Positions 19,417-29,727 of a stretch of DNA of 31,129 nt are shown here, piece after piece. The DNA is from Stellaceae bacterium. GTDB taxonomy: Bacteria; Pseudomonadota; Alphaproteobacteria; ATCC43930; CGMCC-115725. The stretch's first letter is position 1; each line of letters opens with the position of its first letter. The stretch spans positions 1-31,129 of the forward strand of contig JBJKPV010000123.1 of assembly GCA_046706015.1 (NCBI GenBank), read 5' to 3'. Under the pieces are notes generated by a model, which worked only from the letters and a program-made list of their open reading frames with translations, did no database searches and was not told where the DNA came from. The translations under genes and the position numbers were made by a program.

Positions 19417-19911
19417 CGTGCTCGACGCGCATGCAGCATCGCTCTCGCTTCTTTGTTCGGAAGAGCGCAAGACGAGTCGGGATGAAGGTCGCGACAATCT
19501 TCGCGTCGCACGAAGCACGAAATCGCGTGCCGTCAATGAGTTTCGAATGTCCGTCACTAGACGCATTTCCGAACTGATTGACAACGTCAAAGCGCGGGCC
19601 GCGTTCCTCGAAACGCGCGCGAAAGCGACGGATCACAGCGATGTCACACGGTCGACTGCGTGCTTGCCAGTTTCGCGAGCACTCGGCCGCGTTCGCGCAG
19701 TCACGCCGATATCACACCGACACTGCAAGGAATTGCGCGTTAATACGATGCCATCGATCGACCGTCACGCAGGACGACACAATCGCGCAAATGACGAGAA
19801 TGGGCGAGACCGTGTTCGAGAGATTCGTTGTCGCGGCGGGGTCGCGCCAAATCCGGCGCAGCGGATCCGGGTCCGGCGCGCCCCGGCCGACGCGCCATTA
19901 GGCAAGCCGCA

Positions 19912-21540
19912 ATGTCGATGTTCGCTGGGGTCGCCAGTCGCCATTCTGGCGAGCAGGACTCCTATCTTCATCGCGTGGCGCCACTGGCGCTGCTTGCGGG
20001 CGCGCTTGCGATCTTCACGCTGCTGCGAGCCCTTCTTCTTGCCGTGGCGACGAGCGCCGCGATCGATTGCCTCGGCCTCGACATCATTACTTTTGCCGGC
20101 GCCGCGCTTTTGGCCGGCATTCGCTACCAGGAGATCGCACCTTTTGCACGGCCGCTGTTGCGGGGGATCGGTGCTGTCGTTCTGGTTCAGGTCGCGTTCG
20201 ATGTCGTCGCGTTGATCGACGACCCGGTAAGCATGACATCGGGCGCCAACGGCGCCTTTTTTGGGGCCGGCGGCGTGCTGGCGTTGATCGCCGGCATCGG
20301 CGCCCTGTGGCGTCCGAGCTTTCTCCTTCCGCTCTTCTTTCACTACGTGGCATTTCGCCACCAGCTGAGCATTGTCGGCGGCATCGAGATATCCCAAACG
20401 GATTACCTGAGCATGCTCGATATCGGCGAGTTCATCGCGCTCGGCACGCTCTTGGTCGCATACGTGACGCGGCCGGCCTTCCTCGGCCGGTTCGGTTCGG
20501 TGAGCGTCAATGCCGCTGAATTGCGCGCCGGCGCCTGTGCGCTCATCGTCGCCTGGGCGATCGGCGCGCATCTGGGAAATTATTTCGTCTCCGGCTGGAC
20601 CAAGATACGCGCCGGCGGTGCCGATCCGCTCTTTTGGCTTCTCCACAATCCGACTCAGACCGCGATCCTCATCGGGCTCGAGCGCGGCGACAACATCTTG
20701 GCCGCCTGGCCTTGGCTCGTCCAGCTGAGCTGGGACGCGATTACCAAGCTCCTCATCCCGGTCAACATCTTCGTACTCGGCACGCAGTTTCTGGTGCCGC
20801 TCGCCGCGCTGCACCGCCGCGCGCTGATGGTTTTCACCGTCCTCTTCGACCTCTTTCACGTCGTCGTCTATTTCACCCTGGGCGCGGCGTTCTTTTTCTG
20901 GGTCGCGGTCAATATCCTCATCTATCTGTCGCTGAAGCGGATCGACGACCGCGCCTGGACGCCGGCGCTGAGCCTCGTCACGATCGCGGCGATCCTGACG
21001 GCGCATTGGACCTTCTATACGAGCCATCTTGGCTGGCTCGACACCGCGAAGCTGGCCAGTCCGCGCTTCTTTGCCGAAACCCGCGACGGGCGCGAGGTTC
21101 CGGTTCCGTCGGTCTATTTCGGGAATGTGTCCTATTCGATTGCGCAGACCGCGATGTACGTCCCCGACGACAATTTCGCGATGCGTGTCGGCGGCAACAC
21201 GCATGACCCCTCGGCTTGGCGACGCGCGCAGCGCTGCACGCCCGATTTCGTCCATCGCCAGGACACGGGCGTGGGTCTGCCGGCGGTCGAGAGCATGGTG
21301 CGGGGCGCCGACGCCGCGATGCGCCGCCATCCGATCGTCAAGAATGACAATCTCTATTACTTCTACCCCTACCACATGGTTGCCAACCCGATGATGTTCG
21401 CGGCCTTCAATCGGTTGAAGATCGGCGACATCGTGCGTTACCACTATGTGGTCGAGTCGGTTTGCCTCGGGCTGAAGCACGGCAAGCTGGTCCGCGACGT
21501 CCTCAAGCGAACGGATTTCCCGATCGATGTCGGCCGCTGA
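19912..21540 (+). CDS. HTTM-like (vitamin-K-dependent carboxylase / LMF superfamily) polytopic membrane protein with a C-terminal soluble domain
   Basis: About 10 hydrophobic segments. NYFVSGWTKI...W matches the HTTM Y..(S/A)G..K motif and LFDLFHVVVYFTLGAAFFFW matches FH....G..F. It overlaps a DCC gene, a known HTTM neighbour. Confidence 0.65.
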   Translation: MSMFAGVASRHSGEQDSYLHRVAPLALLAGALAIFTLLRALLLAVATSAAIDCLGLDIITFAGAALLAGIRYQEIAPFARPLLRGIGAVVLVQVAFDVVALIDDPVSMTSGANGAFFGAGGVLALIAGIGALWRPSFLLPLFFHYVAFRHQLSIVGGIEISQTDYLSMLDIGEFIALGTLLVAYVTRPAFLGRFGSVSVNAAELRAGACALIVAWAIGAHLGNYFVSGWTKIRAGGADPLFWLLHNPTQTAILIGLERGDNILAAWPWLVQLSWDAITKLLIPVNIFVLGTQFLVPLAALHRRALMVFTVLFDLFHVVVYFTLGAAFFFWVAVNILIYLSLKRIDDRAWTPALSLVTIAAILTAHWTFYTSHLGWLDTAKLASPRFFAETRDGREVPVPSVYFGNVSYSIAQTAMYVPDDNFAMRVGGNTHDPSAWRRAQRCTPDFVHRQDTGVGLPAVESMVRGADAAMRRHPIVKNDNLYYFYPYHMVANPMMFAAFNRLKIGDIVRYHYVVESVCLGLKHGKLVRDVLKRTDFPIDVGR

Positions 21541-21937: not shown

Positions 21938-23044
21938 ATGGCAATGCCCGACACGCTTGGCTTCGAGCTCCGCGAGGATGCGGGCTGCTGGACGGTTTCC
22001 CGCGCGGCGGCCAATCGTCCGGTCGTGGCGACGATCGTCATCCCCACCTATCGCGCCGCCGCGACGCTGAACCGCGCGCTGTTGAGCGCGTTGAGTCAGA
22101 CAATGACCGATATCGAAGTGATCGTGGTCGACGACGCGTCGACCGACGCGTCTTGGGATCTGGCGCTCGAGGCGATGCGCCACGAGCCGCGGCTGCATGG
22201 AATCAGGAACAAGCGCAATTGCGGCAAGCCGGTCGGAATGAATCGGGCGATCGCGCTCGCCCGTGGCCGCTGGCTCGCGGTCTTGGATGCGGACGATTGG
22301 TACCGGCCCGAGCGGCTGGAGATGCTGATCGCGTTGGGCGAGAGCACGCATGTCGATCTCGTCGCCGATAACCAGCTCTTCTACGACGCGGGCGCGTCTC
22401 GCGTCGTGGGATCGGCTTGGCCGGAGGCAACGGGCGCGTGGCCACTGAGCTTCGACGACTTCCTTGCAGGGTCCGATGCCTATGAGAGCTTTAATCTCGG
22501 CATGTTGAAGCCCGTCATCCGCACCGATTTCCTGCGTCGTACCGGGCTCGGCTACCAGGAGCGCGCGCGGCACGGCCAGGATTTCTTCCACCTCCTGGAA
22601 TTCTTCCTGCAGGGCGGAAAGGCCGTCGTCTCCGACCGGGCGCTCTACCATTACACGCTGCCTTTCGGCGCGGTCTCGCGGCGTTGGTCGCATGCCGAGC
22701 GCCGGCGATACGACTTTCAGACTGCTTGCGACATCAACCGGCAGTATCTCGTCGCGGCGCACGCCACGCTCACCTCCGCACAAGCGGCGCAACTGAAACG
22801 TCGCAATGATAAGCTCACATCACTCGAAATGTTTTTCCAGGCGCGCGAGCGGTTTGGGCAAGGCGATGCGACCGGCGCCGCGGCGAGGATCCTGCGTCGT
22901 CCGGCTACCTTGGCTTATGCTTGGCGGCGGCTGCGCCGCCGTTGGGCGCCCCAGAGCGCATCGCGCCCGATCGAGCGCATCGCCGCCCGCGCTCGCCGGC
23001 ACGCGCGCCAAGCCACAAGCGAGGTTTCCGCTCGCGTATCATGA
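21938..23044 (+). CDS. GT2 glycosyltransferase (ExoO/ExoU-like)
   Basis: IVIPTYRAAATL, VIVVDDASTD, GKPVGMNRAI, WLAVLDADDW and GQDFF motifs. Confidence 0.93.
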   Translation: MAMPDTLGFELREDAGCWTVSRAAANRPVVATIVIPTYRAAATLNRALLSALSQTMTDIEVIVVDDASTDASWDLALEAMRHEPRLHGIRNKRNCGKPVGMNRAIALARGRWLAVLDADDWYRPERLEMLIALGESTHVDLVADNQLFYDAGASRVVGSAWPEATGAWPLSFDDFLAGSDAYESFNLGMLKPVIRTDFLRRTGLGYQERARHGQDFFHLLEFFLQGGKAVVSDRALYHYTLPFGAVSRRWSHAERRRYDFQTACDINRQYLVAAHATLTSAQAAQLKRRNDKLTSLEMFFQARERFGQGDATGAAARILRRPATLAYAWRRLRRRWAPQSASRPIERIAARARRHARQATSEVSARVS

Positions 23045-25371
23045 AGAGCGACCAGAATTTCGCCGACAACAATTTCACCGTCTTGCGCCTGCTGCTGGCG
23101 CTGATGGTGGTGCTCGGCCATTTCCAGCTTCTCGCCGGCGTTCGATACCCACCTTGGCCCTTCAACTACGCGGCTATGGCCGTTGACTGCTTCTTCGTCG
23201 CGAGCGGCTATCTCGTCACCAGCAGCTTCGATCGCGATTCCGGCCTGTCGCGCTTTTATATCCGGCGCTTCTTTCGCATCTATCCGCTCTACATCGCGGT
23301 CGTGACCGCGCAGACCTTCGTCCTCGGCGCGCTCGTTTCGGGCGGCGCGCTCGCCAATCTTCACTCGCTCTTGCGCTATTTCGTCGTCAACGCCGCTTTC
23401 GCGAATTTCCTCCAATACGATGTCGGCTCGCATGTCCTGCGCGGTCTCGTCAATCCCAGCCTCAATCCAAGCCTGTGGACCCTCAAGATCGAGTTCGCCT
23501 TCTATCTCATTCTGCCCGCGCTGTGGTGGGCGGTGCGCCGTTACGGCACGTCTGTCCTCGTCGCGATCTTCGTCCTCTCGGCCCTTTATTACGGCGTTCT
23601 CAACCATGCCGGAGAGTACCGGCTCGCCAAGCAACTCCCAGGTCAGCTTCAGTTCTTCGTGCTGGGAATGGCGGTCTATAAGTTTCGCGACCGCCTCGCA
23701 ATCCCGCCTTGGCTCGGCCTCGTCGCGACCTTGGCCCTTGCCGCATTCTGCACGAGCTTGCTCGCAAGTCGCCCGCCGGTGATCTATCCGTTCACGGTCG
23801 GCAGCCTCGTCGCCGTCGCCGCGCTGGCCGCGCCGCGCCTCAGGCTCACGACCGACATCTCCTATGGCGTCTATCTGCTGCATGGGCCGATCATTCAATT
23901 GTCCCTGCTGTTCGGCCTCTACCAAGCCGGCAGGCTGGGGCTCGGCGCGACCGTCGCCGCAGTCTTGGTCTTGGCGGCGATCGTCGAGCGCGTGATCGAG
24001 CGGCCGGGCATCGCGGCCGGTCGCCGGCTGTCGCGGAAATTTGGGCCGCCCGCGGCGCCGCGTGTCACACCCGCAGCTTCGACCGCGACGGCGCGCGCGT
24101 TGGAGCCTGGATTCTCTTCCGCCGCCGCGGCGCCCGGCCTCACCGTCGTCGTGCTCAATGATTTCTGTCACGTGCAAGGTGGTGCGAGCAAGGTTGCAGT
24201 CGACGAGTCGCTCAGCCTGACCCGCTCGGGAACGAACGTGATTTTTCTCGGCGCGGTCGGCCCCGTCTGTGCGGAGCTTCGCCGTTCGGCTGTGGCGGTC
24301 GAGTGCCTTGGTCAAAGCGAGCTGCTCGATTTCGCGCGGCATCCCGGTGTTGCGCTTCAAGCCTTGTGGAATTTCAAGGCGGCGCGCCGCGCCCGCGCGA
24401 TCCTCCAAGCGCTGCCGCGCGACAACACGATTGTCCATGTCCACGGCTATACCACGGCGCTGAGCACCAGCCCGGTGCGAATGGCGCGTCGGCTGGGGTT
24501 TCCGGTCGTGTGCACGCTCCATGATTTCTTCGCGGCCTGCCCCAACGGCGCGTTCTTCGATTATCTGGCCGAGAAACCATGCCTGCGGCGGCCGCTGTCC
24601 CGCCAATGCGTCGCCGCGCGTTGCGACAAGCGTCGCTATGCGCATAAGCTTTTCCGCGTCCTGCGCAGCTGGCTTCAGCGCCACGCCGGTCGTTTCCCCG
24701 ACGCGATCGAGGACTACATCGCGCTCTCGAACCAATCGGGCGCGCTGTTGGCGCCTTACCTGCCGCGACAAGCGCGGCTCCATCATCTCCCGAACCTCGC
24801 CGATGTCGTGCCGCAGCCGTCGGTCGCGGCCGCGAAGAGCCGCGCGATCCTTTACATCGGCCGACTCGATATTGAAAAAGGCGTCCGGCTCCTCGCCGAG
24901 GTGAGTCATCGCTTGGGCATTGCAATCGTCTTCGTCGGCGACGGGCCGCTGCGCCCGGAGCTTGAAGCGATCCCAGGCGTATCCGTAACCGGGTGGCTGG
25001 GCCGCGACGAAGTCCGGCGCCACCTCGATCAGGCGCGCTGTCTCGTCTTTCCAAGCCTCTGGTACGAGACCTACGGTCTCACCGTCAGCGAGGCGGCCGC
25101 GCGCGGCATTCCCGCGATCGTCAGCGACATCTCCGCGGCGGCGGAGCGCGTCCGCGACGGCGTGACCGGCTGGCGTTTTCGCAGCGGCGATGCCGGCGAT
25201 CTCGCGCGCTGCTTGAGGCTGATCGAGGACGACGCCGTGGTGGCGGCGGCCGGCGACGCGGCCTATCGCGCCTTCTGGAGCGACGCCGAAACGCCCGACG
25301 TGCACGCGAAAAAGCTCATGGGTATCTACGACATCACCCTGCGCAGAAGGACCGCGGCGTGCGCGGCGTGA
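23041..25371 (+). CDS. Fusion of an acyltransferase-3 (OafA-type) membrane domain and a GT4 glycosyltransferase
   Basis: ATGA overlap. AT3 motifs RLLLALMVVLGH, DCFFVASGY, RRFFRIYP, SLWTLKIEFAFY and ISYGVYLLH. An Ala/Pro linker (~24030-24140) leads to a GT4 with QGGASKV, TLHDFF, GRLDIEKG and E-x7-E ETYGLTVSE. Confidence 0.9.
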   Translation: MKSDQNFADNNFTVLRLLLALMVVLGHFQLLAGVRYPPWPFNYAAMAVDCFFVASGYLVTSSFDRDSGLSRFYIRRFFRIYPLYIAVVTAQTFVLGALVSGGALANLHSLLRYFVVNAAFANFLQYDVGSHVLRGLVNPSLNPSLWTLKIEFAFYLILPALWWAVRRYGTSVLVAIFVLSALYYGVLNHAGEYRLAKQLPGQLQFFVLGMAVYKFRDRLAIPPWLGLVATLALAAFCTSLLASRPPVIYPFTVGSLVAVAALAAPRLRLTTDISYGVYLLHGPIIQLSLLFGLYQAGRLGLGATVAAVLVLAAIVERVIERPGIAAGRRLSRKFGPPAAPRVTPAASTATARALEPGFSSAAAAPGLTVVVLNDFCHVQGGASKVAVDESLSLTRSGTNVIFLGAVGPVCAELRRSAVAVECLGQSELLDFARHPGVALQALWNFKAARRARAILQALPRDNTIVHVHGYTTALSTSPVRMARRLGFPVVCTLHDFFAACPNGAFFDYLAEKPCLRRPLSRQCVAARCDKRRYAHKLFRVLRSWLQRHAGRFPDAIEDYIALSNQSGALLAPYLPRQARLHHLPNLADVVPQPSVAAAKSRAILYIGRLDIEKGVRLLAEVSHRLGIAIVFVGDGPLRPELEAIPGVSVTGWLGRDEVRRHLDQARCLVFPSLWYETYGLTVSEAAARGIPAIVSDISAAAERVRDGVTGWRFRSGDAGDLARCLRLIEDDAVVAAAGDAAYRAFWSDAETPDVHAKKLMGIYDITLRRRTAACAA

Positions 25372-25439: not shown

Positions 25440-26414
25440 ATGTTCGGTTATCTGTCGGTCGCACAATTATCGGCCGCGATCCGCGCCAAGCTGACCATCA
25501 TCCCCGACGACATCGATCTCGTTGTCGGCATTCCGCGCAGCGGCATGATCCCGGCCTATCTGATCGGCCTGTTCCTGAACCGCCTCGTCATCGATCTCGA
25601 AACCTTTCTCAATGACGGGCCGGCGCCGGGTCATGGCGCGCGGCGCATCGGCGCGGAGGTCGCGAGCCCACTCGATGCCAGGCACGTGCTTCTCGTCGAC
25701 GACAGCCTGGCCTCTGGGGCATCGATGAATGCCTGCATCGGCCGGGTCGCAGCGTCGCGTTTCGCCGGCCGGCTGACGAGCTGCGCCGTCGTCGTTGAGC
25801 CCGCGATGGCGGAGCGGGTCGATCTCCATTTCGTGCAGATGCCGCAGCCGCGCATCTTCGAATGGAATGCCTTCCACCATCCTTATATCGAGATGTCATG
25901 CTTCGATCTCGACGGTCTTCTTTGCGCCGATCCGACGCCGCAGGAGAACGATGACGGGCCGCGCTATCGCGCGTTTCTTCGCGCCACGCCGCCGCTTTTC
26001 AGGTCGACCCGTCGCATCGGGCATATCGTCTCCGCGCGGCTCGAGAAATATCGGCCCGAGACCGAAGCCTGGCTCGCCGCTCATGGCATCAGCTATGGCG
26101 CCCTCCATCTCATCGACCTGCCTAGCCGTGCCGAGCGCATGCGCCTGGGGGCGCATCACCGGCACAAGGCACGGGTGTTCCGCGAGAGCGGCAGCGTTCT
26201 CTTCTACGAGAGCGATCCGGACCAGGCGCAAGAGATCGCGCGCCTTGCGGGCAAGCCCGTCTTGTGCGTTGCCGACATGGATCTGCGCTTACCCGATGGC
26301 TTCCAGGTCAAAGCGCATATCAAGAACGCGAAATGGCATTTGCGCCGCCCCTTGGGTCGGTTCAAGGGGCAATTGCGCGAGAAGATGCGCGGCCTGGTGC
26401 GCTGCGTGCCGTGA
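25440..26414 (+). CDS. Fusion of a type I phosphoribosyltransferase (N-terminal) and a HAD-superfamily phosphatase (C-terminal)
   Basis: DLVVGIPRSG and PRPP loop VLLVDDSLASGASM. Then HAD motif I FDLDGLL, motif II VSAR, a motif III Lys (HKARV) and acidic motif IV FYESD. Confidence 0.85.
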   Translation: MFGYLSVAQLSAAIRAKLTIIPDDIDLVVGIPRSGMIPAYLIGLFLNRLVIDLETFLNDGPAPGHGARRIGAEVASPLDARHVLLVDDSLASGASMNACIGRVAASRFAGRLTSCAVVVEPAMAERVDLHFVQMPQPRIFEWNAFHHPYIEMSCFDLDGLLCADPTPQENDDGPRYRAFLRATPPLFRSTRRIGHIVSARLEKYRPETEAWLAAHGISYGALHLIDLPSRAERMRLGAHHRHKARVFRESGSVLFYESDPDQAQEIARLAGKPVLCVADMDLRLPDGFQVKAHIKNAKWHLRRPLGRFKGQLREKMRGLVRCVP

Positions 26415-27037
26415 CCCTCGTCGATGCCTTGCGCACGGCCAAACGCACCGCTTTGCGCAACGCAAAGCGTGTCGGAAAGCCGTTCGGCTACAGTGAGGTC
26501 AATTGGCTGCGCGTGCGGCAGATAGAGCGCTGGCAGGAATTTCTCGGCCGGCAGGCCCCGCTCGGCGACGGGCTGGAAATCTCGCCGGGCTGGAACGAGA
26601 TGTGGCGCCGCCTTCCTTGGCGCGTCTATGAGACGGTCGATTATCCCGATTTCGACATTTGCCGCGAGCGGCTCGATCGGCGCTTCCATATCGTCATCGC
26701 CGATCAAGTGCTGGAGCACGTCGCCGACCCGCGCGGCGCGGTCGCCAATATACGGGCGATGCTGCAGCCCGGCGGCTACGCGTTAATCGCGGCACCGTTT
26801 CTCTTTCGCGTCCACGCGAGGCCTCACGACTACTATCGCTGGACCGAGCTGGGCCTGAAGACGCTCTGTCGCGACGCCGGCTTCGACACCGCCGCGATCG
26901 CAGTCGAATCCTGGGGCAACAAGGCCTGCGTCAAGGCGCATCTCGGCGGTCCGGTGCGCGATTACGGCTTCGGCCGCGATTTGAGCAACGATCCGGAATA
27001 TCCGGTCATGGTCTGGGCATTTGCGCGGAACCTATGA
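26411..27037 (+). CDS. Class I SAM-dependent methyltransferase-like protein (Methyltransf_11 type)
   Basis: GTGA overlap with the PRT-HAD gene. FHIVIADQVLEHVADP...LQPGGY and PHDYYRWT. Motif I is degenerate (LEISPG). Confidence 0.75.
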   Translation: MTLVDALRTAKRTALRNAKRVGKPFGYSEVNWLRVRQIERWQEFLGRQAPLGDGLEISPGWNEMWRRLPWRVYETVDYPDFDICRERLDRRFHIVIADQVLEHVADPRGAVANIRAMLQPGGYALIAAPFLFRVHARPHDYYRWTELGLKTLCRDAGFDTAAIAVESWGNKACVKAHLGGPVRDYGFGRDLSNDPEYPVMVWAFARNL

Positions 27038-27053: not shown

Positions 27054-27776
27054 TCAGCCCATGGCGGCTTCGGCGCGCGTGTCTTGCAGGATCTCGGCGA
27101 CCGCCTCGGGGCCGGCGGCGATGCGAAGATGAGGCAGGTCGCGTTCGAGCGTCGCCTGGTCGCGTGCCGTGCCGAACCAGACGACGGTCTCGCATAAGCT
27201 CATGAGCGGCAGATCGTCGCGATGATCGGTGAAGACGATCCGCGGCCGCTCGTGCCAGCCGAGGCCGGCAAGGAATTGCATCACGGCATCCCGCTTCTGC
27301 GCGCCGGCATTGCTCGGCTCGCTCGGCGCGCGCTGTCGCTTTGTCGCCAGCACATGTGCGAATCCCAAGGCGCGGCCCAAGCCCTCGGCATAATCCGCGA
27401 CCGCTGCCGTCGCGAGCACGGTATCGATCGACCCGGTCGCGATCGCCGCGAGCGCCGGCGCCATTTCCGGGCGCACCGCGCGCAAGAGCTGGCCGATCAA
27501 TAATTGTTCGGCGGCACCGCGATCGCCCGCCGTTGCCGCCTGCCAACGGTGCTGCAGGCGTCGCTTGAAATCCTCATGGCCGATCAAGCCGGTTTTGCGC
27601 AGGGCCAAGAGAAGAAGCGTCGCCGCGACGGCGCGCGTTCGCTGCGCGGGGCGGAGCTGCGCGAACGGCGCGCGCAGCATGAAGCGGACCCAGCAGGGAA
27701 AGCTGTTGACGGCGAGTATGGTGCCGTCGAGGTCGAAGATCAGGACGGGGTCGCGTTCAGCGCGTCGAGCGACCAT
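27054..27776 (-). CDS. HAD-superfamily (subfamily IB-like) phosphatase
   Basis: Motif I LIFDLDGTI, motif II VLATAA, Lys in GAQKR and motif IV FTDHRDDLPL. The start is 27776 or 27788, overlapping the PRTase gene end. Confidence 0.85.
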   Translation of the reverse strand: MVARRAERDPVLIFDLDGTILAVNSFPCWVRFMLRAPFAQLRPAQRTRAVAATLLLLALRKTGLIGHEDFKRRLQHRWQAATAGDRGAAEQLLIGQLLRAVRPEMAPALAAIATGSIDTVLATAAVADYAEGLGRALGFAHVLATKRQRAPSEPSNAGAQKRDAVMQFLAGLGWHERPRIVFTDHRDDLPLMSLCETVVWFGTARDQATLERDLPHLRIAAGPEAVAEILQDTRAEAAMG

Positions 27777-28360
27777 GGGAAGCGGCATAATTGACCTTGA
27801 TAGAGCGCATAATCCGGCTGAATGAGTGGCTCTTCCGTCGTCACGGTGATGACCGCGGAGCGCAGCAGGGTCGCGTGCGGCAGGCGCGCGCGGACGGTCT
27901 CGCAAACCTGCAGCAACGTGGCGCCGCTATCGACCGCGTCATCGACGACGAGCGCCAGGCTTTCGCCCGCGGACGCTCTCGCCCAAGCATCGAGCGTCGC
28001 GAGCTCGGCCTCGTCGAAGCGATGCGGAACGGCAGGCCGCGCCGGCGGCTTGCGCGTCAGCATCGCGTGCTCTATCACGCGGAGGCGATCGACGACCGGA
28101 CGCGGCAGGTGCCCGATCACTTCGCTCACCACGGCGGCGCGAGCCTTGTGCGCGGTCGACGGCCGGCGGCAGGTCATGGCGATGACCGGCAGGTTCGATC
28201 TGTCTTCCCGCGCCATCGCCTCGGCGACGATCAGCCCGCCCGTCCTGATGCCAATGAGAAGATCGGGACGTCGGTCGCGCGCGACCAGCTCCATGAGCGC
28301 GCCACAAGCGTCGGCGAAGCCGCGCTTATCGAAGCTGATCACGCCCCTCGGACGCTTCAT
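27740..28360 (-). CDS. Stand-alone type I phosphoribosyltransferase
   Basis: ATGA overlap with wzy. PDLLIGIRTGG, PRPP loop LVVDDAVDSGATL, AVITVT and C-terminal PDYALY...CRFPWS. Confidence 0.88.
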   Translation of the reverse strand: MKRPRGVISFDKRGFADACGALMELVARDRRPDLLIGIRTGGLIVAEAMAREDRSNLPVIAMTCRRPSTAHKARAAVVSEVIGHLPRPVVDRLRVIEHAMLTRKPPARPAVPHRFDEAELATLDAWARASAGESLALVVDDAVDSGATLLQVCETVRARLPHATLLRSAVITVTTEEPLIQPDYALYQGQLCRFPWSLDALNATPS

Positions 28361-29727
28361 CGCAAGGCCGCCATGCGGCTTGCACGCAACGGCATGTCGA
28401 TCCGCCCGCGCGTCTCGCAGACCAAGGCGCCCAGCGCGGCGCCAAGAAAGAGGGCTGCGGCTTGGTCTTCGAGCACGGAGAGCACCGTCCCATAGCCGAA
28501 GACGAAGGCGATAATCGCGACCGCGGTTGCAGCGCGCTCCTGCGATCCGGAAATCGGCCGGAACACGAGCCAGAGGATCGCGGTCAGGTAGAAGAGCGCG
28601 AAAACGCCGAAATAGGCGTAGAGGAGGATGAAGATATTGTCGGCCGGGTTGAAGCTGTCGATCGCATAAAGCCGCTGCGGTCCGCCGATGCCACCGAGGC
28701 CGACGCCGAAGAACAGCATTTGATGCCGCGTGATCCAGCGCCAGGCCTCGGGCCAAGTATAATCCATGCGCAGATAGAGCGATGCTGTGCTGAAGACGCC
28801 GCTGCCGTGCTCCATGTGTAGATCCATGATCAAAAACGGCAAACCGACGGCGGCGATCATGAAACCGGCGCAGCTAAGCCGAAGCCAGCGCAGGCGGTGC
28901 GCGGCCGGGAACAGCAAGATGGCGGCGATGGGCAGAAAGGCGACGAGCGCGCCCTTTTGCGTCGTGAGCAGAACGGCACCGACGGATACGAGCAGCAGCG
29001 CGGCGCGCCACAACCAACGCTGGATGCGCGCGAGCAGCACGATTGCAAGCGGCGGGACGAGGGCGGCGACCGAGATCGAACTGCGCGTGAAGCCGGCGAC
29101 GCGGCGGGCGAATTCGTTTTGAACGTCCCAATTCTTCGACACGTCGACATTGAGGTCGCCGACCACGGTCTTGATCCCGGTCCAGGGAAAGGTCAGCACG
29201 AATTTGTCGAGCCCGATGCCGACCATCGTGATCAGCCAGACCGCCAACAGGAAGGCGAAGACGCGGTCGCCGGGGCGCAACAGCAACGAGGCGACGAAAT
29301 AGCCGAAGAGCAGGTTGACCAGGACCTTCACGCCGTAGGCGACGCCGGCGACACTGCCGATCGTCCCCATCAAGACGAGTCCGTGAAAGGCGATCAGTGC
29401 CCCGAATAGCGCAAAAGCCGGGTGAAGGCGCAGGCGCATCGCCTGCGCCGCCACGAGCAGGGCGAGCGGGACGAGGATCAGCGCGTCGCGCAGGAGGATG
29501 AAATTGTCTTTTCCCGATAAATAAAGCCCATAGCGAATCGGTGCCTCGAGCGCGTAGATCCCGAGATAGACGAGGCTGGACAAGAGGAAGACCTTGCCCA
29601 TCCGTGCGCTGTCGATGTTGCTGAGACCGTCGAGCGCCGCACTGACGGGCAGCGGCCGGCCTTGCACGGCACCACTACCCATGCGCCGCGGCCGCGCGCG
29701 ATCGTTCGCGATCTCGGTTTGAGCCAT
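28357..29727 (-). CDS. Wzy polymerase / O-antigen-ligase-like membrane protein (Wzy_C)
   Basis: About 12 TM segments, RVAGFTRSS loop, and a late periplasmic loop followed by FGVGLGGIG and ADNIFILLYAYFGV. It sits in a Wzx-containing locus that has no other polymerase. Confidence 0.75.
   Translation of the reverse strand: MAQTEIANDRARPRRMGSGAVQGRPLPVSAALDGLSNIDSARMGKVFLLSSLVYLGIYALEAPIRYGLYLSGKDNFILLRDALILVPLALLVAAQAMRLRLHPAFALFGALIAFHGLVLMGTIGSVAGVAYGVKVLVNLLFGYFVASLLLRPGDRVFAFLLAVWLITMVGIGLDKFVLTFPWTGIKTVVGDLNVDVSKNWDVQNEFARRVAGFTRSSISVAALVPPLAIVLLARIQRWLWRAALLLVSVGAVLLTTQKGALVAFLPIAAILLFPAAHRLRWLRLSCAGFMIAAVGLPFLIMDLHMEHGSGVFSTASLYLRMDYTWPEAWRWITRHQMLFFGVGLGGIGGPQRLYAIDSFNPADNIFILLYAYFGVFALFYLTAILWLVFRPISGSQERAATAVAIIAFVFGYGTVLSVLEDQAAALFLGAALGALVCETRGRIDMPLRASRMAALR

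Follow-up and report, generated by a model that had tools for sequence, protein, structure and literature searches.

The window analysed here is a stretch of 31,129 nucleotides from a Stellaceae bacterium (NCBI GenBank assembly GCA_046706015.1, contig JBJKPV010000123.1, positions 1 to 31,129 of the forward strand), and the gene under study lies at 25440..26414 (+) within a Wzx/Wzy exopolysaccharide operon. It is an intact open reading frame running from ATG to TGA that encodes 324 residues, and its GC content by codon position (0.68/0.46/0.79) is the same as that of the real genes of this window of 65% GC. It is a real gene, in agreement with the first observation of a preliminary description that had been made from the letters of the window. 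The encoded protein joins an N-terminal type I phosphoribosyltransferase (PRT) domain to a haloacid dehalogenase (HAD) phosphatase domain. Both folds are present, both active sites are conserved, and the protein belongs to the WbaM family, which is tied to glycan loci and to O antigens containing ribofuranose (Ribf). The gene product is probably a cytoplasmic, membrane-associated and bifunctional ribofuranosyltransferase of this family, presumed to use phosphoribosyl pyrophosphate (PRPP) as the donor and a sugar as the acceptor, with the order of its steps and its membrane anchor likewise presumed.

The AlphaFold2 model of the protein, made with 89 homologues, consists of two domains followed by a long C-terminal helix (predicted local distance difference test, pLDDT, of 93.9; predicted TM-score, pTM, of 0.84). 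Conservation was counted over 89 homologues that are 35–77% identical to the Stellaceae protein, and in these the catalytic sets of both domains are essentially invariant. The PRT domain comprises residues 1–147 (25440..25880, +) and has the five-stranded parallel-sheet core of the PRT fold. PF00156 matches residues 7–148 with 31.1 bits (cut-off 26.3), including the PRPP loop VLLVDDSLASGAS, in which the acidic pair and the S/T-x-x-G loop of type I PRTs are present. The complete loop for PRPP (ribose 5-phosphate) binding, HVLLVDDSLASGASM, spans residues 82–96 (25683..25727, +), contains a vicinal DD pair and corresponds in the alignment to the 4z1o PRPP loop; Asp87 is found in 83/89 homologues (Glu in five others), Asp88 in 88/89, Ser89 in 85/89 and Gly93 in 87/89. 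The segment GIPRSGMIPA (residues 30–39; 25527..25556, +) lies where type I PRTs have their pyrophosphate-binding loop, a role presumed here by analogy, and is similarly conserved (Arg33 and Ser34 each 87/89, Gly35 89/89). Other conserved residues of the domain are specific to the family: Asp128 and, in a 'hood' motif (PRIFEWNAFHH, residues 137–147; 25848..25880, +), Arg138 (85/89), Phe140 (88/89), Trp142 (88/89) and Asn143 (87/89). This motif is a candidate acceptor site. The preliminary description had noted a PRPP-binding loop and HAD motif I in a single chain of 324 residues, and the Pfam match, the model, the profile matches and the conservation all confirm this.

An exhaustive structural search over 48,161 PDB representatives placed the PRT domain nearest to small purine PRTs, and the family profile matched GpT-2 with an E-value of 9.6e-11. 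Among solved structures and known sequences, the nearest relatives of the N-terminal domain are 6-oxopurine PRTs (4z1o, 1vdm, 7kl6 and XGPRT). This kinship speaks for a nucleobase or nucleotide enzyme, in which a PRT and a nucleotidase would convert a base and PRPP to a nucleoside monophosphate and then to a nucleoside; its place in the locus would then be accidental or reflect a regulatory role. The annotation of homologues under 'nucleoside metabolic process' and the action of the nearest HAD folds on nucleic-acid 3′-phosphates point in the same direction. In 6-oxopurine PRTs the Asp two residues past the DD pair (DDxxD) is a catalytic residue that contacts the purine N7. The Stellaceae protein lacks the DDxxD signature: DDVAD in 4z1o corresponds to DDSLA, with the Asp after the DD pair replaced by Ala91, and this column varies in the family (Ala in 18, Ser in 18, Asn in 14 and Leu in nine of the 89 homologues). 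Purine chemistry is therefore disfavoured. The small 6-oxopurine PRTs (archaeal HGXPRT/GpT-2 4z1o, Pyrococcus horikoshii 1vdm and bacterial XGPRT) are also single-domain enzymes of purine salvage, with neither the Arg138/Phe140/Trp142/Asn143 motif nor a fused HAD domain. Three other PF00156 genes lie elsewhere in the host genome and are presumably housekeeping PRTs and PRPP synthetase. Set against the glycan-locus link, the glycosyltransferase fusions and the Escherichia coli Ribf genetics described below, which are overwhelming, a nucleobase enzyme is barely credible.

The HAD phosphatase domain (residues 148–284; 25881..26291, +) has a minimal cap. Neither Pfam nor NCBIfam recognised the C-terminal half when it was searched by itself, so the assignment was drawn from structure and profile. 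Its nearest folds among the PDB representatives are the PNKP-like phosphatases T4 PNKP and Pnkp1, and the family profile matched Pnkp1 with an E-value of 8e-5. As these structural relatives are also recovered by the sequence profile, the DLDG tetrapeptide is a true HAD motif I rather than a chance occurrence. The four catalytic motifs (DxD, S/T, K and an acidic pair) are all present on a Rossmannoid fold. Motif I, CFDLDGLLCADP (residues 154–165; 25899..25934, +), carries the nucleophile Asp156 and the acid/base Asp158 (FDLDG); Asp156 is conserved in 87/89 homologues and Asp158, Gly159 and Cys162 in all 89. The motif II region HIVSARLEKYR (residues 195–205; 26022..26054, +) has Ser/Thr198, Arg200 and Arg205 in every homologue, and the stretch from the motif III lysine, Lys243, to motif IV, FYESD (residues 243–259; 26166..26216, +), has invariant Lys243, Phe255 and Glu257, with Ser258 in 87/89 and Asp, Glu, Ser or Asn at position 259. 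Between motifs I and II lies an NDDGxxY insert (residues 170–176; 25947..25967, +), a small flap in the position of the cap (Asn170 82/89, Asp171 86/89, Asp172 87/89 and Tyr176 89/89). A single short helix (residues 174–182) is modelled here, and the domain is almost capless.

The 3′-phosphatase domain of T4 PNKP and Pnkp1 are capless HADs that act on nucleic-acid 3′-phosphates and occur joined to a kinase or a ligase module. They share 16–20% identity with the Stellaceae HAD domain, whose NDDGxxY insert is peculiar to the WbaM family. Both act on polymer ends, which fits a glycan-bound phosphate. Capless HADs tend toward macromolecular substrates, and the near-absent cap would agree with a substrate attached to a glycan.

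The remaining residues, 288–320 (26301..26399, +), form a basic amphipathic helix in the model, with lower pLDDT in this region. The net charge is +5 to +6 per 18 residues and the hydrophobic moment 0.4–0.57. The helix lies outside the module that is kept in fusion proteins, as matches to the fusions stop near residue 280, and it is probably a membrane-surface anchor. Foldseek searches of the PDB and of the Swiss-Prot models returned only matches to the N-terminal domain (XGPRT and HGXPRT) and no two-domain relative; no reviewed Swiss-Prot protein in the latter set has the same two-domain fold. A protein atlas had proposed a viral cluster for the protein (score 0.91), and a tblastn search of 50,697 phage records gave no match.

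The link to ribofuranose comes from E. coli. When 5,426 complete E. coli genomes were searched with blastn, using as the first query a low-GC homologue from Polaribacter (L055), the match was a gene annotated 'phosphoribosyltransferase family protein'. It has cpsG on one side and an 'O183 family' wzx on the other, and the galF–gnd O-antigen cluster in which it lies has a wzy of the 'O169/O183 family'. The O183 product (327 residues; L092:10931-11911) is 39% identical to the Stellaceae protein over 288 residues that cover both domains (BLASTP E-value of 3e-76), and a homologue from O105 is also 39% identical (E-value of 2e-69). The homology to WbaM thus spans both domains. A review describes wbaM as a putative phosphoribosyltransferase whose role in the addition of β-Ribf to glucuronic acid (GlcA) was confirmed in 2005 (PMC7685785). 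According to the same review, the O183 O antigen has a D-Ribf-(β1→4)-D-GlcpA side branch, O105 is among the nine Ribf-containing serogroups, and O169 is without Ribf and has glucose instead (PMC7685785). The other E. coli serogroups with Ribf are O5, O20, O54, O114, O153, O178 and O185.

Among O183, O105 and O169 the distribution of the gene follows that of the sugar. With the O183 gene as the query, 13 of the 5,426 genomes matched, two at 100% identity and 11 at about 68%. Five of the 13 matches were inspected and all were O183 or O105; the three from the 68% class were O105 clusters. The O169/O183 wzy was likewise found in 13 genomes: the two with 100% identity carry the PRT-HAD gene, whereas the 11 with about 97% identity, of which two are named O169:H41, do not; of these 13, just the former two are among the blastn matches to the gene. 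In the one O169 locus that was inspected the gene is replaced by insertion-sequence (IS) elements, a different wzx and a glycosyltransferase. Presence of the gene correlates with Ribf in these three serogroups, with O183 and O105 having both and O169 neither. WbaM (O183/Shigella boydii type 10) and the O105 homologue resemble the Stellaceae protein in PRT-first order, catalytic motifs, length class (327 residues for WbaM, 324 here) and location in a Wzx/Wzy cluster. The Stellaceae gene differs in its uncultured high-GC host, in serving an exopolysaccharide rather than an O antigen, in an acceptor that need not be GlcA, and in its neighbourhood, where a methyltransferase may be coupled to it and a second PRT/HAD pair, encoded by separate genes, lies close by.

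The family is large and widely distributed. More than 2,300 matches were found in a collection clustered at 90%, nearly all of about 326 residues, together with 2,255 in a library clustered at 50% identity and at least 596 in contigs from one genome per species. The last set includes Steroidobacteraceae, Pseudomonas/Stutzerimonas, Rhizobiaceae, Sphingomonadales and Rhodobacterales as well as Polyangiaceae, Acidobacteriaceae, Bacteroidales, Flavobacteriales and Eubacteriales. Cultured carriers of a homologue or of a syntenic locus include strains of Steroidobacter, Sinorhizobium fredii and Stutzerimonas stutzeri. The more than 2,000 clusters of the family come from Pseudomonadota, Bacteroidota, Myxococcota, Acidobacteriota and Firmicutes, and the module is often part of a large synthase with several glycosyltransferase (GT) domains. 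Public labels for homologues are 'phosphoribosyltransferase family protein' or 'hypothetical protein'. All three long contigs that carry homologues of 57–60% identity are Wzx/Wzy exopolysaccharide loci with a GT4 gene directly upstream. A Pfam scan of the two immediate neighbours at 30 taxonomically diverse loci (60 proteins) returned 14 GT2, nine GT1/GT4, eight Wzx flippases, three Wzy_C, three GH5 and two pyruvyl transferases, with single cases that include WecG, acyltransferase-3 and GDP-mannose pathway enzymes. Among the best 150 cluster representatives, 41 have at least 450 residues. Their fusion partners are mostly GT2, GT4, GT8, WbsX, RgpF and TOD1/MUCI70, with Wzx flippase, TupA-type ATP-grasp and methyltransferase domains in others (FkbM in 4/31 and Methyltransf_11 in 3/31). 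By both its neighbours and its glycosyltransferase fusions the family is clearly enriched in glycan loci; the preliminary description had named a lack of such enrichment as evidence that would refute its proposal. Two of the long proteins, P0124 (628 residues) and P0125 (640 residues), contain the whole PRT-HAD module twice in tandem, and Pfam shows only PF00156 in them.

In bacterial glycans PRPP is the source of Ribf, and in every characterised case the transferred ribose 5-phosphate is dephosphorylated by a HAD phosphatase (PMC10299916, PMC11127046, PMC11231755, PMC11294581, PMC12096443). This general scheme was the background of the preliminary description and is borne out by the literature (PMC10299916, PMC11294581, PMC12096443), as is its statement that the characterised dual-domain enzymes place the phosphatase first, whereas the present protein is PRT-first (PMC10299916, PMC11294581, PMC12096443). 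The prototypes of the PRP-gPRT enzymes are ORF5 of Klebsiella pneumoniae O4, ORF7 of O7, Salmonella STM0726 and a Thermobacillus composti protein (7SHG) (PMC11127046, PMC11294581, PMC11231755). They are cytoplasmic, form β-Ribf products and perform a two-step transfer and dephosphorylation of ribose 5-phosphate, which is the logic proposed here. The architecture is different: in these enzymes a capped HAD precedes the gPRT (PMC11294581) and the cap is helical (PMC11127046), whereas the Stellaceae protein has the PRT first and one short helix in place of the cap. The second group, CriT/CrpP of the Haemophilus influenzae type b capsule polymerase Bcs3 and two domains of Campylobacter jejuni Cj1432, the C-terminal and the middle one, carries out PRPP-dependent O-ribosylation followed by the action of a HAD-like phosphatase (PMC10299916, PMC12096443). 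CriT has a PRTase-like α/β core, in which the DD pair is replaced by D680 and E818 on separate loops, and has three helical-bundle domains; it lies C-terminal to CrpP in the 1,200-residue polymerase Bcs3 (PMC10299916). The Stellaceae protein keeps the vicinal DD pair, has no helical bundles in the model and is compact. More generally, the transferase domains of the characterised Ribf transferases diverge from canonical PRTs, and the PRT domain studied here is canonical.

Neither 7SHG nor Bcs3 appeared among the top structural and profile matches (Foldseek over the PDB representatives, and the family profile). The preliminary description had suggested that a Foldseek comparison with the gPRT/PRP and Bcs3 domains would be informative, and the comparison was negative, with purine PRTs and PNKP-type phosphatases returned instead. 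The reversed domain order, the canonical DD loop, the PNKP-like HAD and the missing 7SHG and Bcs3 matches indicate that the protein, although probably similar in function, is not a member of those families. The central proposal of the preliminary description, a PRPP-dependent glycan ribofuranosyltransferase, is thus supported by the homology to WbaM and by the glycan loci, while the kinship that it had drawn to gPRT/PRP and CriT/CrpP does not hold.

The mechanism that we propose proceeds in two steps. The N-terminal domain would bind PRPP–Mg through its canonical pyrophosphate and DD loops and would transfer ribose 5-phosphate, with inversion, from α-PRPP to a sugar hydroxyl of an undecaprenyl-diphosphate-linked repeat unit under construction by the neighbouring GT2 and GT4 enzymes. 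The product would be a β-linked Ribf 5-phosphate, from which the almost capless HAD domain would remove the 5-phosphate by means of the nucleophile Asp156, the acid/base Asp158, Lys243 and Glu257. The end product would be β-D-Ribf, probably as a side-branch or terminal decoration, and the adjacent methyltransferase may modify this Ribf or a neighbouring residue. The β linkage in O183 fits inversion of α-PRPP. Since intact PRPP and HAD sites occur in one chain, and a relative is needed for a β-linked, unphosphorylated Ribf, the two-step reading is the most economical one.

Several points weigh against this assignment, in addition to the purine-PRT kinship of the N-terminal domain. The identification of the O183 PRT-HAD gene with wbaM follows from its being the sole PRT gene in the cluster, and the 'confirmed' role of wbaM goes back to one sentence of the review (PMC7685785). 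An identity of 39% guarantees neither the same acceptor nor the same product. We infer PRPP use and phosphatase action from the domains, and likewise infer the presence of Ribf in the Stellaceae polymer. The host genome is a fragmented metagenome-assembled genome (2.87 Mb in 411 contigs) of about 60% completeness, which precludes a wider survey of its glycan genes. To our knowledge no enzyme of the WbaM family has been assayed, and the evidence on WbaM is genetic rather than biochemical or structural.

A membrane-associated enzyme could also make a lipid-linked donor, by transfer of ribose 5-phosphate to undecaprenyl phosphate and dephosphorylation by the HAD domain, and the resulting undecaprenyl phosphate-Ribf would then be consumed on the periplasmic side, as happens in three-component systems. 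Chemistry of this type is known from Citrobacter youngae ORF15, a PRP fused to a polyprenyl-phosphate phosphoribosyltransferase (PMC11127046). The basic amphipathic tail of the Stellaceae protein could sit on the membrane, and the window encodes two polytopic membrane proteins without a family assignment, at 19828-21537 and at 28360-29727. However, the known lipid phosphoribosyltransferases are integral-membrane proteins of the UbiA family (PMC11127046), whereas the PRT domain has the soluble type I fold, and fusions of the PRT-HAD module to cytoplasmic GT2, GT4 and GT8 domains recur in the family. The O183 and O105 clusters have no annotated GT-C or extra flippase. The O183 linkage is β, whereas all but one of the pentofuranose side chains described for three-component systems are α (PMC11127046). 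A lipid-linked donor is highly unlikely on this evidence, and direct transfer to the growing repeat unit is the reading that we retain.

The surroundings of the gene are those of a polysaccharide assembly locus. On the same strand the order is an HTTM-like membrane protein, a DCC1-like protein, GT2 (21938-23044, +; Pfam), an acyltransferase-3/GT4 (AT3-GT4) fusion (22921-25371, +; Pfam), PRT-HAD and a methyltransferase. The rest of the locus contains a Bac_transf priming enzyme, Wza, a Wzz/GNVR copolymerase, GT4, a pectate-lyase-like protein and Wzx. The placement of the PRT-HAD gene within a glycosyltransferase operon, as first described, is thus borne out by the GT2, AT3-GT4, priming transferase, Wza, Wzz and Wzx neighbours. 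The AT3-GT4 protein is kept as a fusion, of about 760 residues, in two syntenic loci (L090:10555-12852 and L091:10276-12549) and so is not an assembly artefact. The downstream gene encodes a class I methyltransferase (26411..27037, +; Pfam Methyltransf_23/_11), and at 26411-26414 (GTGA) the TGA stop of the PRT-HAD gene overlaps its possible GTG start; starts at ATG 26333 or GTG 26264 are also possible in the same frame.

A second PRPP module lies on the minus strand at 27054-29727. It consists of a polytopic membrane protein of 456 residues (28360-29727, −), without a Pfam match and possibly Wzy-like, a stand-alone PRT of 206 residues (27743-28360, −) whose gene shares an ATGA overlap with the former at 28357-28360, and a HAD-IB gene (27057-27788, −) that follows the stand-alone PRT with an overlap of about 40 nucleotides. 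The stand-alone PRT belongs to its own conserved family of about 205 residues (524 matches). The stand-alone PRT and the HAD-IB protein were considered as paralogues of the fused gene and rejected, as BLASTP matched only the loop motifs (E-values of 0.03 and 0.16).

The cassette of membrane protein, PRT and HAD-IB recurs in L090 (Niveispirillum) and L091, where the order is Wzy-like protein, stand-alone PRT, HAD-IB and AT3-GT4 fusion, with a Wzx flippase beyond. L091 additionally has GT2, a DCC1-like gene and a membrane protein of 540 residues, and L090 a pectate-lyase-like gene. In both, a pyruvyl transferase (PS_pyruv_trans; L090:9318-10304 and L091:9314-10303) replaces the PRT-HAD and methyltransferase genes of 25440-27037. 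We interpret this as a putative swap of a decoration cassette, like the exchange of wbaM for a glycosyltransferase between O183 and O169. Variation of the PRT-HAD slot between related loci fits an activity that decorates side chains.

The methyltransferase and the second module bear on a further possibility, that ribose 5-phosphate or another PRPP-derived group is not simply dephosphorylated: the phosphate might stay in place or form a bridge, the pentose might later be epimerised or methylated, or the substrate of the HAD domain might be another phosphorylated intermediate of the pathway. The HAD subfamily differs from the known PRP and CrpP phosphatases, the methyltransferase is possibly translationally coupled and such domains recur in the fusions, and the second PRT/HAD pair shows that the locus has more than one PRPP-dependent step. 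Against this, PRT and HAD are fused in every member examined and their catalytic sets are co-conserved, so that the two probably act one after the other on a single substrate, and the O183 product is a plain terminal Ribf (PMC7685785). A product other than Ribf is accordingly unlikely, and we continue to favour transfer followed by dephosphorylation. It is tempting to go further, and we do so tentatively: the WbaM family might be an independent class of PRPP-dependent glycan ribofuranosyltransferases, in which a canonical type I PRT with its DD loop intact has been retooled from N- to O-glycosylation and joined, in the opposite order to that of the known enzymes, to an almost capless PNKP-like HAD. 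In the Stellaceae locus it would act alongside the second, unrelated split PRT/HAD pair, and the polymer would then carry two PRPP-derived pentoses, one of them possibly methylated.

The entry of ribofuranose into bacterial polysaccharides was solved only between 2022 and 2024, for the gPRT-PRP, CriT/CrpP and UbiA-type systems. The WbaM family was not found in the accessible part of the recent mechanistic literature on Ribf transfer, and it seems to solve the same chemical problem with a structure of its own. The family is not without precedent, since wbaM was tied genetically to Ribf in 2005, and it differs from the enzymes on which the field was founded in 2022–2025. Recognition of the family would allow ribose to be predicted in many uncharacterised exopolysaccharide, capsule and O-antigen structures, would correct annotation that now stands under nucleoside metabolism and would offer a compact enzyme of 325 residues for chemo-enzymatic glycan synthesis. 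As the O183 acceptor is known (GlcA), the biochemistry of WbaM is directly testable. The Stellaceae gene adds a further member to the family and stands out chiefly by its variable slot and the nearby second PRT/HAD pair.

Two of the homologous loci have other genes of interest. In Paracoccus sp. MC1862 the homologue sits in a lipopolysaccharide/exopolysaccharide cluster on a 42-kb plasmid, and two genes upstream of it is a 621-residue 'nucleoside hydrolase-like domain-containing protein' (L089:7464-9329), which might be a riboside-cleaving enzyme that acts on the same polymer. On plasmid pC of Rhizobium etli CIAT 652 (L088) the homologue is annotated as a hypothetical protein of 432 residues and is near a putative glycosyltransferase of 758 residues. 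A ribose ATP-binding cassette (ABC) transporter, rpiB and a RuBisCO-like gene lie a few genes away from it, and this link to ribose may be a coincidence.

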